Below are positions 962-5,985 of a stretch of DNA of 64,000 bases, in pieces (within the stretch, counting starts at the first letter, position 1; the number at the start of each line of letters is the position of its first letter). The DNA lies in the sequence record MK327940.1; one strand, given 5' to 3'. The notes under the pieces were generated by a model. That model did not search any database and was not told the origin of the DNA. It saw nothing but the letters and a program-made list of their open reading frames with translations. Source of the stretch: Escherichia phage vB_EcoM_G29. The position numbers were made by a program, and so were the translations under genes.

Positions 962-1417
962 TTAAAAGAGGCTGTTCATTATTCGGTAAAGTGAAGGACC
1001 CATCACATATTGCCACTGAGTACGAGGAATAAGAGCAAAAGCATCCATCTCTGGAATCATAACGCCATCTTTATTTTCAAAATAAGACTCACAACGGCAA
1101 TTTCTGAACATCTCATGCTCTACTGGAATCGTATAATAAAATAACTGTAAGTCTTTATTACTAGAATATTTAAATACACCTAGGTCTTCTAGAAGGTCTG
1201 GATTATAATTGTTAAAACCAGTCTCTTCTGAGCATTCTCTTCGTGCTGCATCTAATGCGCTTAAATCAGAATTTTCTACACGCCCCTTTGGAATATCCCA
1301 GCGATGTGCCATCATTCCAGGCTTACGAGAACCAGTAACTCGTCCCATAAATAAATCTTTATCTTCTGTCATAAAGATAATACCAGCTGATAGTGTTTTC
1401 ATTTTAATTTCCTGCAT
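962..1417 (-). CDS. nudE: Nudix hydrolase
   Basis: 151 aa with Nudix box GRVENSDLSALDAARRECSEETG; position next to e as in T4; a second in-frame ATG at 1402 preceded by AGGAAA may be the true start. Confidence 0.85.
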   Translation of the reverse strand: MQEIKMKTLSAGIIFMTEDKDLFMGRVTGSRKPGMMAHRWDIPKGRVENSDLSALDAARRECSEETGFNNYNPDLLEDLGVFKYSSNKDLQLFYYTIPVEHEMFRNCRCESYFENKDGVMIPEMDAFALIPRTQWQYVMGPSLYRIMNSLF

Positions 1418-1887
1418 TCAGTGATAAAATTATTTAAATTTTGAGTATATTTCTTTTCATCAAAAATCTTTTGCTGCCTACGTAACCGCCATGGCATTTC
1501 AATGAACACGCACCATATTCCTGATAGTACTGCTGCTGTAAAAATATTAACAAGTATAATTAAAAGAATCCAATCTTCCGTTCTGCCTACTGGACTTTCT
1601 CCAAAGAAGCAAAATACAAATGATGTCACAGGAAAACTAATAATATACCACAGAATAACCTTCTTATCTGTGAACCAATCAGCGTTCGTTAACTTAGCAC
1701 GACCATTTTGAATACACACGAATTTATCATCTGTTACAGTAGATGGCTTAACTGCTTGATATCCCATTCTAAACTCCCTAATTAATCGTTTCTTTGTATC
1801 TTCAGAACAGCCGCTCCAGTCAACTCTATCGACTGAAATGCCATCGTCCCCATCATCTAAATCATACCAGAGAGTTTTTAAAATCAT
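1399..1887 (-). CDS. hypothetical protein, C-terminal transmembrane segments (e.2-e.8-like region)
   Basis: 162 aa track ORF; hydrophobic stretches; start overlaps the upstream stop as ATGA. Confidence 0.6.
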   Translation of the reverse strand: MILKTLWYDLDDGDDGISVDRVDWSGCSEDTKKRLIREFRMGYQAVKPSTVTDDKFVCIQNGRAKLTNADWFTDKKVILWYIISFPVTSFVFCFFGESPVGRTEDWILLIILVNIFTAAVLSGIWCVFIEMPWRLRRQQKIFDEKKYTQNLNNFITECRKLK

Positions 1888-2258
1888 TTGATTTTCCTAC
1901 AATCATTCACGAATTCTTTCATTGATTCATTTTCAATATAAGACATGTAGTTATTATATTCTTTTAATTGTATTTTGTAATCCTTTTTTCTTTGCCAATT
2001 TATTTTAAAATTATCATAATGAAAATATAAAATGATACTAAAGAATGAAAATAATGAAATTGCTATAGTATAATGAAGTTCACTCCAAACTTCTATTATA
2101 TCTACTATACCGCTGACGTTACTGCGGATGTTTAAAATAATACAGTCAATCATTAATCCAATAAGACTACCAGCAAGAGCTGCAGCCAACGCCACAGCAA
2201 AAATTAAAAATGACTCAGAAAAAGAATATTTGACTTTATTTAGTTTTGGCTTTTGCAT
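1884..2258 (-). CDS. hypothetical small membrane protein
   Basis: 124 aa track ORF with long hydrophobic segments; translationally coupled to neighbours. Confidence 0.6.
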   Translation of the reverse strand: MQKPKLNKVKYSFSESFLIFAVALAAALAGSLIGLMIDCIILNIRSNVSGIVDIIEVWSELHYTIAISLFSFFSIILYFHYDNFKINWQRKKDYKIQLKEYNNYMSYIENESMKEFVNDCRKIK

Positions 2259-2632
2259 CGTGATTCCTTAACAAATTTCATAATTTCATTAAATTCATAC
2301 ATATTTAGTTTAAGCTGGTGTTCCTTTTTGATCTTTTTACACTGAGCTTTCCATTCACGTACACGTTTACGATAATGCCTTCCTTGATACCAATATCCTA
2401 CCCAATTTACAGGTACCAATAAAAATGGAACTACTAATGGAAGAATTAATACTAACAAAAATATTACGCCAGATTCAATATCAGTCATAAAGTCTATAAC
2501 CATTCCAACAATCAATAGAATTACAAATGATATAGCTGTCACAGGACCTATTAATACATCAGTAGGAATTAGCTGGCGCTTTAATTCATACTTCAACGGT
2601 TTACTTGGAAGGTATAGTGATGGTTTTGACAT
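2240..2632 (-). CDS. hypothetical small membrane protein
   Basis: Track ORF 2240..2653 begins at a non-ATG codon; I prefer the ATG at 2632 (MSKPSLYL...) preceded by AGGAA. Confidence 0.55.
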   Translation of the reverse strand: MSKPSLYLPSKPLKYELKRQLIPTDVLIGPVTAISFVILLIVGMVIDFMTDIESGVIFLLVLILPLVVPFLLVPVNWVGYWYQGRHYRKRVREWKAQCKKIKKEHQLKLNMYEFNEIMKFVKESRCKSQN

Positions 2633-3209
2633 ATTCTCTACATTCCTTAACAAATTTTTCTAGTAATAAATCGCTTTCAAAATTGGGATTTTCTACGAAT
2701 TTATCAAAAAGATCATCAACAATAGTTAAGATATTCTTTTTACTAAGAATACGTTTATTTTCATGCTTCGTTTCAGAATCAACTATAAGAGTAAAGAAAT
2801 ATTTCTTGCCCTGAAATTTTACAGTAGTATCAATATAAAATAAATTTGACTTTTGTAAATTACGTTTAAACCATGCGTCACTTAAACTATAAACACCGAG
2901 ATAATCAAAATCGTCGTTTAAATAACAAACTGACCATTCAGGAGAAATGAAATCAGTAAATTCAACATCAAAATCACATGTCAATGAATGAATTGATTCA
3001 ATACTGTTAATAAGTATTCCAGGACGTATTAAAGACTTTTTACCTCTAGAAAATCTTCCAGAAAGACTTTCATCAGTTTCATATGAAGAACCCCAATAAT
3101 AATTACGTCCTTCTGCCATACGTTTAAGAGCATTTAATAATTGGTCTGGAACATCAACTTGTCTTTGGAATTCTTCAAACATTGAATTGAAATCACTTTG
3201 CATTTTCAT
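2601..3209 (-). CDS. hypothetical protein
   Basis: 202 aa track ORF with ATG start and GGAG upstream. Confidence 0.6.
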   Translation of the reverse strand: MKMQSDFNSMFEEFQRQVDVPDQLLNALKRMAEGRNYYWGSSYETDESLSGRFSRGKKSLIRPGILINSIESIHSLTCDFDVEFTDFISPEWSVCYLNDDFDYLGVYSLSDAWFKRNLQKSNLFYIDTTVKFQGKKYFFTLIVDSETKHENKRILSKKNILTIVDDLFDKFVENPNFESDLLLEKFVKECREYVKTITIPSK

Positions 3210-3229
3210 TCCTATTTACTCCAAGTAAT

Positions 3230-3245
3230 AGGGGCCGAAGCCCCT
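3230..3245 (-). other. GC-rich UUCG-tetraloop hairpin immediately after a stop codon
   Basis: aggggccgaagcccct; 19-nt identical copy at 44298-44316 downstream of hoc; no U-run. Confidence 0.6.
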
Positions 3246-3250
3246 TATCA

Positions 3251-3844
3251 TTATTTCAGAGAATTAATATATTCCTGAACATCGGCAGAGGTAGTTTCAA
3301 CCCCAGAAATATTACCATTAAAGGTTTCAACTCGAGCAAGAGTATCTTCAATATCAACCTTAGTCAGTGCTGCAATTTCAACTACATCATCGGCAGTACT
3401 AATTCCGAGGGCATTCGCGGCGCGAGTTTCACGGATATATTCCAATTTAACTGCAAGTTCTTGGCGAGCATCATCTAACTCAACTACTTTCTTGGCGATT
3501 TCAATTCGCATTTCAGCATAACCATCAGCTTTAGTAGTCAACTGCTCAGCTGTTCGACGATATAGTAAACCAAGTTTAGCATGCATTGTTACATCTTGAC
3601 CTTCCGAAAGAAGCTTGCGAATTTCACGCTCTTTTGATTCGGCCTGCTTATTCTTTTCGACAATAAGTTCACGAATACGCTTTTCTTCATTAATAGATTT
3701 AACAGAAGCAGTTTTTAGATCTTTAATCTTATCAAGTAGTTTTGCTGCTGCAGCAGTATACTGTTCTTCAACAGATAGATTTTTAGCCATAGCAGAACCA
3801 AGTTTAGTGCGAATAAACTCAACAATTTTCTTCAGTGTGTTCAT
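3251..3844 (-). CDS. coiled-coil protein, possibly PspA/IM30-like
   Basis: 197 aa; long charged heptad-like stretches; resemblance to PspA judged by eye only; own early-type promoter upstream. Confidence 0.55.
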
Positions 3845-3871
3845 AGTATTTCCTTAGGTTGGTATAATTAG

Positions 3872-3899
3872 ATAATATCACGTTTTAATAGATTGTAAA
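3872..3899 (-). promoter_or_regulatory. early sigma70-type promoter for the 3251..3844 gene
   Basis: Minus strand: GTTTACA, 16 bp, TGaTATTAT. Confidence 0.55.
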
Positions 3900-3900
3900 C

Positions 3901-4785: not shown

Positions 4786-5187
4786 TTATTTACCTAGTTT
4801 ACTTATTATAGCTTCTGCAGCAGCTTTTAGCTTAGATGCAGTGTTAATACGATTTTTAATTTCAGTATACGCATCGCCAAGAACATCAAGGCTATCAGAA
4901 TAAACACTTACACTATTGCGTTCGCTATTTGAAATAGAACCTTTAGTTTTGCGGTCAAAATCGGTGTACACGTCTTGAAGATCGCGGGCTGCCTTCTTTG
5001 CATCATCCAATGCATCAAGAGCTTTATTCAAAGCATTAACGTATTTTTTAGTGTCGAACATATTCTTAGAAATTTTAACAGGTGCGCGTTCAGGAGTAGC
5101 TAACACAGATTTAGGAACCTGAGCGCCAGATGCCAATTTCTTAGAAATTTTGAAAAATGCTTTATTGAATTTATTTTCTTGACTCAT
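4786..5187 (-). CDS. hypothetical protein
   Basis: 133 aa track ORF; start overlaps stop of the small upstream ORF (ATGA); Rho-independent terminator downstream. Confidence 0.6.
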   Translation of the reverse strand: MSQENKFNKAFFKISKKLASGAQVPKSVLATPERAPVKISKNMFDTKKYVNALNKALDALDDAKKAARDLQDVYTDFDRKTKGSISNSERNSVSVYSDSLDVLGDAYTEIKNRINTASKLKAAAEAIISKLGK

Positions 5188-5348
5188 TGTAAAAGAACAT
5201 TATCGATGTTGTACATTTCAATAGCTTTAGCTTTCCACTTAAGAAAATCGCCGCGGTCTTTTGGGTCCAATTGGAAGAATACTTTAGTAAGATCTGCTTC
5301 AGATGGTAATTTTGCTGCTTCGGTTAAAAATTCGGCATAGGTTTTCAT
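5184..5348 (-). CDS. small protein with capsid-targeting-sequence-like N-terminus (internal-protein-like)
   Basis: Hand-translated 54 aa MKTYAEFLTEAAKLPSEADLTKVFFQLDPKDRGDFLKWKAKAIEMYNIDNVLLQ; below the 60-aa track cutoff; N-terminus matches the T4 internal-protein motif MKTYQEFIAE. Confidence 0.5.
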   Translation of the reverse strand: MKTYAEFLTEAAKLPSEADLTKVFFQLDPKDRGDFLKWKAKAIEMYNIDNVLLQ

Positions 5349-5473: not shown

Positions 5474-5947
5474 TCATTTGATTTGTTTAGCAGACCAAAT
5501 GCGGTCTTTAATAATTTTTTGGATGTCTTCAACATACTCAAGAGAGTGAACATGTGGATTATCTTTGAAACTATAAGCACGGGCTAACTTTTGGCCTTCG
5601 GTTTTGATTACTAAAAGCTCTTTAAGGATAGCTTCATATTTAGCGATAATTCCTTTAACGATATTTTTTTCTTGTGCCGCTTTAGGATCTGCTTTAGGAG
5701 CAGGTTTACCCGAAGCCTTTGCAAAAGCAGCGCCAGTAGCAACTAAACTTTTCCAGGCCATACTAACTGCATTTCCCGTAAATCCTTCCGCTTTCATGTC
5801 GCGTGCAAACTGGAATCGCGATTCATCAGAAGCATCTTTATAGGAATATTTACCCGCGGCAATGGCAGCTTTTGCAACAGCTTGAATTTCGGTGCTAGAT
5901 GCTTCATTTAACACCGCTTCATTTAAAAATTGAGTATATGATTTCAT
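5474..5947 (-). CDS. internal head protein-like (capsid-targeting-sequence N-terminus)
   Basis: Start moved to ATG 5947 (MKSYTQFLNEAV...); TATAAATA late promoter at 5986-5993 and terminator at 5996-6022 lie inside the longer track ORF. Confidence 0.65.
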   Translation of the reverse strand: MKSYTQFLNEAVLNEASSTEIQAVAKAAIAAGKYSYKDASDESRFQFARDMKAEGFTGNAVSMAWKSLVATGAAFAKASGKPAPKADPKAAQEKNIVKGIIAKYEAILKELLVIKTEGQKLARAYSFKDNPHVHSLEYVEDIQKIIKDRIWSAKQIK

Positions 5948-5985
5948 CTTATTTCCTGTTTTAATTTGTAGATTTAATATACTAA

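Follow-up and report, generated by a model that had tools for sequence, protein, structure and literature searches.

In the 64,000-nucleotide stretch of Escherichia phage vB_EcoM_G29 analysed here (sequence record MK327940.1; hereafter the window, whose first letter is position 1), four consecutive minus-strand genes, the orthologues of e.5, e.4, e.3 and e.2 of phage T4, encode proteins that share a short C-terminal motif, here called the tail, and lead directly into nudE. We propose that the tail of this e.5-e.4-e.3-e.2-nudE block is selected as protein, that its overlap with the Shine-Dalgarno sequence of the next gene is incidental, that the junctions so formed permit the loss of whole gene cassettes, and that the tail may act as a docking tip; the probability of this account as a whole is put at about 0.6. 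A C-terminal motif uniting many accessory genes of T4-like phages is apparently undescribed, and text searches with e.2-e.5, the protein accessions and the locus tags returned no description of a shared tail and nothing relevant on these genes.

The gene chain and its tails

Bases 1200-3900 of the window are 100% identical (megablast) to positions 65200-67900 of Escherichia phage vB_EcoM_G4500 (MK327945.1; Tequatrovirus), and about 630 T4 relatives match the same bases at lower identity. The genes were assigned through the T4 reference NC_000866 and the T4 entry L13089, in which e.2, e.3, e.4 and e.5 bear the names msp7, msp6, msp5 and msp4 (the entry holds msp1-msp8). A comparison with the T4 e genes had been recommended in an earlier interpretation made without database searches (the sequence-only reading), and it showed that T4 has these genes too, in identical order between e.6 and nudE/e, with identities of 86.9% for e.4 and ~88% for e.3 (tblastn). 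The e.2 gene is intact in this phage, with 162 amino acids, in contrast to the 102 amino acids of T4 e.2. The genes of the chain are:

2601-3209, minus strand: e.5 orthologue, 202 amino acids, soluble; tail helix at about 181-196 and motif at F186-R191 (T4 synteny, family alignment, AlphaFold2 prediction)
2240-2632, minus strand: e.4 orthologue, 130 amino acids; predicted transmembrane (TM) segments at about 28-47 and 55-76; basic cytoplasmic C-terminal region; tail FVKESRC
1884-2258, minus strand: e.3 orthologue (T4 msp6), 124 amino acids; two TM segments, the second (TM2) predicted to run as one long helix into the tail FVNDCRKIK
1399-1887, minus strand: e.2 orthologue, intact, 162 amino acids; N-terminal cytoplasmic part of 76 amino acids, two TM segments, tail FITECRKLK; match to phrog_2203 (E=2e-77)
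962-1402, minus strand: nudE, Nudix hydrolase (Pfam NUDIX, 1e-13; 64962-65402 in the G4500 record annotation), last coupled gene of the chain

The four proteins end in ...KFVKECREYVKTITIPSK (e.5), ...KFVKESRCKSQN (e.4), ...EFVNDCRKIK (e.3) and ...NFITECRKLK (e.2). All four open reading frames (ORFs) recognized by the sequence-only reading are confirmed, as is their common tail except in e.4, which reads E-S-R-C and not C-R; the e.5 protein, thought to end in ...EYVK, continues for seven further residues. The start of e.4 is the ATG at 2632, in line with the T4 and G4500 annotation, and the TTG at 2653 is an artefact of the ORF finder. When the pattern [FW][IVL]xxC[RK] was counted within the last 20 residues of all ORFs of at least 30 amino acids in the whole 168,363-bp G4500 genome, it was found in three of 799, namely e.2, e.3 and e.5, with e.4 sitting between them as a variant. 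Shuffled proteins gave a mean of 0.6 such ORFs per genome, which were scattered and not adjacent to each other.

Conservation of the tail in T4-like phages

Related loci were gathered with e.6 as the anchor and comprise 21 IMG/VR loci (60-98% e.6 identity), Mosigvirus PhAPEC2 and Gaprivervirus P479. When all ORFs of the e.6-to-e interval were clustered with BLAST, the tail was placed on at least 16 clusters that BLAST does not link to one another, in 25 loci. These belong to Tequatrovirus, Mosigvirus, Gaprivervirus-like, Klebsiella phage Marfa-like and Enterobacter phage CIP9-like phages, with hosts in Escherichia, Klebsiella and Enterobacter. The carriers are membrane hairpins (e.2, e.3, e.4, the RB69ORF133c type and clusters 21, 54, 58, 71, 75 and 99), the e.5 family (three BLAST clusters, joined by profile comparison) and small soluble proteins ending W..W..L..F-I-x-x-C-R (clusters 17, 55, 72 and 106).

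The consensus of the tail is Phi(-3)-x-x-[F/W](0)-[I/V](+1)-K-x-C(+4)-R(+5)-K. In a motif-anchored alignment of 33 tails, position 0 is F in 30 and W in three, +1 is I in 24 and V in seven, +4 is C in 26 and otherwise mostly I, V or M, +5 is R in 32, and +6 is mostly K or R. Positions 0, +1, +4 and +5 had served to pick the sequences; -3 and +2 had not, and they too are kept, with a hydrophobic residue at -3 in 79% and Lys at +2 in 61% of the tails.

The e.5 family gives the clearest view of this conservation. Among eight members at 16-47% identity only five columns are invariant, namely the start Met, N98, F186, C190 and R191, and among 43 sequences N98, C190 and R191 remain invariant while F186 is kept in ~90%. 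An exhaustive profile search of 1.84 billion representatives with this family yielded 28 clusters, and F[IV]xxCR is retained in all 16 of the distant full-length representatives inspected, with the residues between and after it free to vary. A search of IMG/VR with the DNA pattern for F-I-K-x-C-R-K-TGA gave 37 matches, six of them on T4-like contigs, of which five measure about 120-171 kb; these six include four that end intact ORFs of at least 119 amino acids and one in a broken e.3, and the remaining matches of the search are chance hits in short frames. A profile of the tail alone, run against a set of 5.8 billion proteins, returned only eight short fragments.

Selection on the peptide and overlap with the Shine-Dalgarno sequence

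It is very probable that the tail is held at the protein level and that its overlap with the Shine-Dalgarno sequence is incidental. In a codon survey of 72 distinct tail contexts all six Arg codons are in use (AGA 32, AGG 13, CGT 15, CGC 6, CGA 5, CGG 1), and Cys is encoded by TGT in 34 and TGC in 27. The Shine-Dalgarno sequence of the next gene moves relative to the motif, lying 1.7-2.3, 5-5.7, 6-6.7, 7.7, 9.7, 10, 12.3 or 15 codons from the F codon. Furthermore, the tail FIAKCRAK of cluster 106 (locus L025) is followed by a 30-nt spacer and then by a separate AGGAGGT, and the tail FLEYCRSGIQL of cluster 17 has no overlapping downstream gene.

All four junctions of the window have the geometry of coupled genes: both genes lie on the same strand, the start codon lies at or before the preceding stop codon, and a Shine-Dalgarno sequence lies 5-11 nt upstream, inside the upstream ORF. 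The relevant elements are:

2637-2654, minus strand: e.5 tail codons F-V-K-E-C-R (TTT GTT AAG GAA TGT AGA)
2644-2648, minus strand: Shine-Dalgarno sequence for e.4, AAGGA, 11 nt before the ATG at 2630-2632
2258-2275, minus strand: e.4 tail codons F-V-K-E-S-R
2265-2269, minus strand: Shine-Dalgarno sequence for e.3, AAGGA, 6 nt before the ATG at 2256-2258
1896-1913, minus strand: e.3 tail codons F-V-N-D-C-R
1893-1898, minus strand: Shine-Dalgarno sequence for e.2, AGGAAA, 5 nt before the ATG at 1885-1887
1411-1428, minus strand: e.2 tail codons F-I-T-E-C-R
1408-1413, minus strand: Shine-Dalgarno sequence for nudE, AGGAAA, 5 nt before the ATG at 1400-1402

The genes overlap by 32 nt at e.5/e.4, by 19 nt at e.4/e.3 and by the 4 nt of ATGA at both e.3/e.2 and e.2/nudE, in agreement with the earlier statement that each ATG overlaps or closely follows the stop. 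The further claim that the Cys-Arg-Lys/Glu codons form the Shine-Dalgarno sequence is true of e.3 to e.2 and of e.2 to nudE (AGGAAA, from Arg-Lys), but not of e.5 to e.4 and e.4 to e.3, where AAGGA is made of Lys-Glu codons two positions upstream of Cys-Arg; in e.5, AGAGAA stops just 1 nt short of the e.4 ATG and cannot act as a Shine-Dalgarno sequence. Even within the window, then, the Shine-Dalgarno sequence falls on different codons of the aligned peptide motif. For nudE, the T4 reference uses an upstream ATG (MQEIKMKT..., 151 amino acids) located within the e.2 tail and lacking a Shine-Dalgarno sequence (window 1400-1417); the ATG at 1400-1402, which overlaps the e.2 stop, follows AGGAAA by 5 nt and gives the 146 amino acids of the G4500 record, is more likely to be the start.

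Such an arrangement is common in this genome. In a rough gene call of the whole genome, 143 of 243 same-strand neighbour pairs (59%) are no more than 12 nt apart; 89 of these overlap, 36 by ATGA, and Lys and Glu show a mild, 1.4-1.5-fold enrichment among the final eight residues of genes closely trailed by another gene. Since a Shine-Dalgarno sequence inside the upstream gene is common genome-wide, co-encoding of the tail and the next Shine-Dalgarno sequence is ordinary, whereas the repeated peptide is not. The geometry is that of ordinary ATGA coupling in T4, with the Shine-Dalgarno sequence in the upstream ORF and overlaps of at least 4 nt; the coupling itself is no different, and what is unusual is the conserved peptide alone. 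Folding of the junction RNAs does not exceed that of shuffled sequences, so that the ribosome-binding sites should be open and independent initiation is also possible.

Paralogy, topology and predicted structure

The sequence-only reading had offered tandem paralogy as one explanation of the common tail. Family alignments built from the loci were compared profile to profile with hhalign, with non-tail families of the same loci as controls (P=0.04-0.7). The e.3 and e.2 families align over 78 columns (P=6e-7; e.3 29-124 with e.2 79-162), and the e.3 and e.4 families over 112 columns, nearly the full length (P=7e-6; 1-125 of e.4), both alignments covering hairpin and tail. Similar values were obtained for e.2 with cluster 21 (P=1e-7) and for e.4 with cluster 54 (P=2e-6), and cross-matches in PHROGs link e.3 to the e.4 family (6e-3) and the RB69ORF133c type to the e.2 family (3e-4). 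Most of the signal among e.2, e.3 and e.4 comes from the tail. When the tail is cut off, the values of P=9e-4 (e.3-e.4), 0.01 (e.3-e.2) and 9e-5 (e.4-cluster 54) still beat the controls, although TM composition may inflate them. The e.5 family aligns with the membrane families over 9-17 tail columns and nowhere outside the tail in hhalign, and it has no TM segment. We conclude from these profile comparisons that e.2, e.3 and e.4 are probably diverged tandem paralogues, as had been suggested, that several further membrane clusters are probably related to them in this way, and that e.5, for which the suggestion fails, is an unrelated soluble protein with this tail at its end.

According to hydropathy analysis, e.2, e.3 and e.4 have two hydrophobic TM segments apiece and e.5 has none. 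Basic residues flank the hairpins (4-13 at the N end and 9-15 at the C end), and the connecting loops are acidic with zero or one basic residue. From this charge distribution the positive-inside rule predicts that both ends of each hairpin, and hence the tail, lie in the cytoplasm. Hydropathy and charge distribution thus agree with the earlier prediction that three of the four are membrane proteins. AlphaFold2, run on e.3 with a shallow seven-sequence alignment, predicted one helix at 15-46 and a continuous helix at 48-123, with a predicted local distance difference test score (pLDDT) of 86-90 over the last 60 residues. For e.5 (43 sequences) it gave an alpha/beta model of medium confidence (pLDDT 61; predicted template modelling score, pTM, 0.65) with a tail helix at 181-196. 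The hydrophobic positions -3, 0, +1 and +4 of the tail would lie on one face of such a helix.

Junction repeats and loss of gene cassettes

The longest exact direct repeat of the region is a 16-mer common to the e.5 and e.4 tails (2642-2657 = 2263-2278). Relatives of the phage have lost whole genes at junctions of this kind. In one close relative (L006) e.2 is exactly lost, and a hybrid e.3 tail, FVIDCR-KLK, joins straight to the start of nudE; the crossover lies within TGCAGGAAA, which is common to both parental junctions. Several database phages also have e.3 adjoining the Nudix gene. In three further loci (L013, L015 and L017) e.4 is exactly lost, and at AARGRGGTTCRWAATG, likewise common to both parental junctions, the tail of e.5 runs straight into the start of e.3. 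The repeated joints of tail and ribosome-binding site thus appear to favour clean in-frame loss of cassettes and presumably favour their gain as well.

Gene decay is also evident. In T4 itself a divergent segment containing a stop codon shortens e.2 to 102 amino acids, and a 1-nt insertion follows further on; the stretch without annotation that precedes nudE (NC_000866 67491-67651; L002 1492-1652) is the decayed C-terminal half of e.2. This remnant still ends ...NNFITECRK and supplies the Shine-Dalgarno sequence of nudE. Elsewhere e.5 is split (L006), e.4 is split (P479) and e.3 is broken (L054). The truncated, split and lost copies indicate that these are dispensable accessory genes.

The closest described mechanism is the shuffling mediated by promoter early stem-loop (PeSL) units in the hyperplastic regions of T4-type genomes (PMC2839356, PMC4122927). 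In both cases short conserved repeats lie at gene boundaries in a plastic region and whole ORFs are gained or lost by recombination, here in the precise losses of e.2 and e.4. PeSL units, however, consist of a non-coding promoter and terminator (PMC2839356, PMC4122927), whereas the repeat described here consists of the last codons of one gene with the ribosome-binding site and start of the next, and it encodes a conserved peptide. No PeSL-type pair of a sigma-70-like early promoter and a stem-loop terminator was found at the internal junctions, whose RNA is unstructured.

Proposed role of the tail and alternative explanations

In the account that we prefer, the block would be an early transcription unit whose successive genes begin within the gene before them or at its stop codon, and its products before NudE would be three small inner-membrane proteins, each a two-TM hairpin with both ends in the cytoplasm, and one soluble protein. 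TM2 is predicted to extend into a long, basic helix in the cytoplasm that ends in the tail. Selected as protein, the tail would mark a broader group of accessory proteins, those that fill the e.6-to-e locus of T4-like phages. Because the genome is tightly packed and the tail lies where a gene ends, its Lys, Glu, Arg and Gly codons would be used opportunistically as the next Shine-Dalgarno sequence, an overlap that would follow from the motif and not give rise to it. The near-identical joints of tail and ribosome-binding site would act as short direct repeats between which whole cassettes may be lost, in frame and with coupling kept.

As a common docking tip, the tail would allow the proteins either to form an assembly among themselves, in which e.5, the obvious soluble candidate, might sit on the membrane stalks, or to bind one shared partner. 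The conservation, the helical periodicity and the presence of the same tip on unrelated bodies point to such a tip on a cytoplasmic helix, a proposal that we make tentatively and hold at somewhat less than even odds. A bolder extension, which we regard as doubtful, is that the F-[IV]-K-x-C-R-K tip is a hitherto unrecognised T-even address tag, a short linear motif capping a cytoplasmic helical stalk or a soluble domain, that recruits changeable early accessory proteins to one receptor, with its DNA and the adjoining ribosome-binding site serving also as a recombination joint. The receptor might be the e.5 body, e.6 or a host protein; the recruits would be membrane hairpins, e.5-like proteins and small soluble proteins; and the in-frame joint would let cassettes swap while the tag and translational coupling stay.

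Several points weigh against this account. The similarity of the membrane families without the tail is weak (P=1e-3 to 1e-2) and perhaps partly a matter of TM composition, and the e.3 model has a low pTM (0.36), which leaves nothing of it usable but the secondary structure. The Cys of the e.4 lineage has moved or given way to I, V or M and is therefore not strictly needed. The gathering of loci through e.6 biases the co-occurrence of the tail with e.6 and e.5, and the survey beyond T4-like phages consisted of one narrow DNA pattern.

The alternative that survives best, although we consider it unlikely, is that these early proteins owe their location or lifetime to the tail, acting as an amphipathic helix that seeks the membrane or as a C-terminal degron. 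The hydrophobic face formed by -3, 0, +1 and +4 is followed by Arg-Lys, hydrophobic moments are 0.28-0.48, and the basic ends RKIK, RKLK and RK loosely recall basic C-terminal signals of the ClpX type. However, the mean hydrophobicity is negative, only e.2 and e.5 have a moment that differs significantly from that of shuffled sequences, the residues flanking the motif include acidic ones, and in e.5 and e.4 the motif lies 11 and 5 residues from the end, unlike an end-anchored degron. The negative mean hydrophobicity and modest moment argue against a membrane-seeking helix and fit a surface for protein contact.

That the nucleotide sequence is selected and the peptide is a passenger, the junction being a recombination repeat (a coding analogue of PeSL) or a site for a translational regulator such as RegA, is distinctly improbable. 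The exact 16-nt repeat of the e.5 and e.4 tails, the precision of the cassette deletions at junction repeats and the gene shuffling through short conserved cassettes known from T4-type hyperplastic regions (PMC2839356, PMC4122927) speak for it. Against it, the amino acids are fixed despite wide synonymous diversity across lineages, the junction RNAs are no more structured than shuffles, and the internal junctions have neither promoter nor terminator. A RegA operator was considered and rejected: two junctions match 12 of 15 positions of the RegA consensus from systematic evolution of ligands by exponential enrichment, but the window holds 12 such matches where 12 are expected by chance.

Still less probable is an action of the tail in cis, as a nascent peptide that tunes termination and re-initiation for the overlapping downstream gene. 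The downstream ATG does usually lie 17-29 nt past the F codon, even where the upstream ORF continues past the motif (e.5, e.4 and the clusters ending GKHVS or RNQNVS). It lies ~40-50 nt off in several e.5-like genes, however, tails exist without a coupled gene, and the tail is the most conserved part of a family of 200-amino-acid soluble proteins, which points to a role in the finished protein; nor is the tail known to resemble any arrest peptide.

Hardly credible, finally, is the other explanation offered by the sequence-only reading, a by-product of dual coding in which the C-terminal residues are whatever the Shine-Dalgarno sequence of the next gene and the ATGA overlap happen to encode: the Shine-Dalgarno sequence does lie within the motif at all four window junctions, Lys and Glu are enriched 1.4-1.5-fold near the ends of closely trailed genes, and AAATGA supplies the terminal Lys of many tails, but the codons of F, I/V and C are not purine-rich, Arg is CGN in 27 of 72 tails and so provides no AGG, the Shine-Dalgarno sequence takes eight different offsets from the F codon, the chain is alone among 113 close gene pairs in showing the tail, and the by-product is refuted by the synonymous variety of Arg and Cys, the moving Shine-Dalgarno sequence and the tails kept with a 30-nt spacer or without an adjacent, overlapping gene.

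Neighbouring genes and transcription

The chain lies between e.6 and the lysozyme gene, and a hairpin precedes it:

3251-3844, minus strand: e.6, 197 amino acids, upstream of e.5; always heads the array and serves as context, not as a tail carrier
3230-3245, minus strand: GC-rich hairpin with a UUCG loop, between e.6 and e.5; terminator in the record annotation
431-925: lysozyme gene e, downstream of the chain

The identity of e.6 across genera (60-98%) is far above that of the tail-bearing genes downstream. Its product is predicted to be helical, and no match in family, structure or literature was found in Pfam, NCBIfam, PADLOC, PDB or text searches. In front of e.8, e.7 and e.6 there are sigma-70-like promoters, in agreement with the annotation of L13089. 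Since a promoter scan found no convincing promoter after the hairpin at 3230-3245 or inside the chain, the chain is probably an early unit that is read through from the early promoters of e.8, e.7 and e.6.

Relatives outside Tequatrovirus contain a second tandem family between their e.3-like and e.2-like genes, with three to seven copies of 65-105 amino acids (L004 3857-4651, L005 4191-5243 and also L010-L024), which the G4500 genome lacks. Every copy ends W-[VFQ]-S-S-S-x-x-C followed by the stop, and this stop often runs into the next Shine-Dalgarno sequence (TAAGGAA). In L010-L024, also outside Tequatrovirus, two larger and conserved genes, for a 318-amino-acid DUF7277/DUF7275 protein and a 228-amino-acid protein ending VYLEFPMEGW, lie between two tail-bearing blocks; neither gave a functional clue.

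Database matches and known systems

The database records call e.2-e.5 hypothetical or predicted membrane proteins. Searches of Pfam, NCBIfam and PADLOC found no match for e.2-e.5 or e.6, PHROGs returned only families of "unknown function" or "membrane protein" for the chain proteins, and a sequence search of the PDB gave no match. Precomputed annotation assigns Pfam PF26876 (the e.5 family) and PF26896 (a Mosigvirus e.2-like fragment) to these proteins; local Pfam gave no e.5 or e.2 match. Some GenBank records label the ORFs "host specificity protein", "sulfurtransferase" or "phosphoserine phosphatase", labels that no domain search supports. The "sulfurtransferase" label may stem from the resemblance of the CRK(G) tail to the active-site loop of rhodanese; a rhodanese-like reading of "CRKG" was rejected, as there is no rhodanese fold or domain match.

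Superinfection exclusion and lysis timing had been proposed for the membrane proteins, a suggestion that gained no support: no match to such families (Imm, Sp, holin/antiholin) was found in Pfam, the lysis categories of PHROGs, NCBIfam or PADLOC. T4 Imm, Sp, holin T and antiholin RI are likewise small early or late phage proteins with TM segments, but the chain proteins show no sequence relationship to them (Pfam, PHROGs), and the tail occurs in no other ORF of the genome, so that it is missing from those genes.

The internal proteins of T4 carry the N-terminal capsid-targeting sequence MKTYQEFIAE, which the prohead protease cuts after Glu. Its E-F-(I/L)-x-E resembles the (E/N)-F-(I/V)-x-E of the tail, and the window itself contains MKTYAEFLTE (5184-5348). 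This likeness is regarded as chance, for the tail is C-terminal and on membrane proteins, and the Glu at +3 varies across genera (G, H, Y, Q, S, N). Two ORFs of the window (4786-5348 and ~5474-5950) have N-termini, MKTYAEFLTEAA and MKSYTQFLNEA, similar to this targeting sequence of the T4 internal proteins. In the window the first of them is broken up into two ORFs, of 54 and 133 amino acids, that overlap; in PhAPEC2 it forms a single ORF of 187 amino acids (L004 184-747).

Implications

Even in T4, studied more thoroughly than any other virulent phage, about half of the genes are without a function. One C-terminal motif links four of these T4 genes to at least a dozen further clusters in related phages, and it offers a concrete experimental handle, with three residues (F, C and R) that can be mutated and one peptide that can be used as bait. 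The overlap with the ribosome-binding site that prompted the sequence-only reading is routine. Coding sequence, in turn, can double as a junction for the gain and loss of cassettes in a plastic region of the genome.

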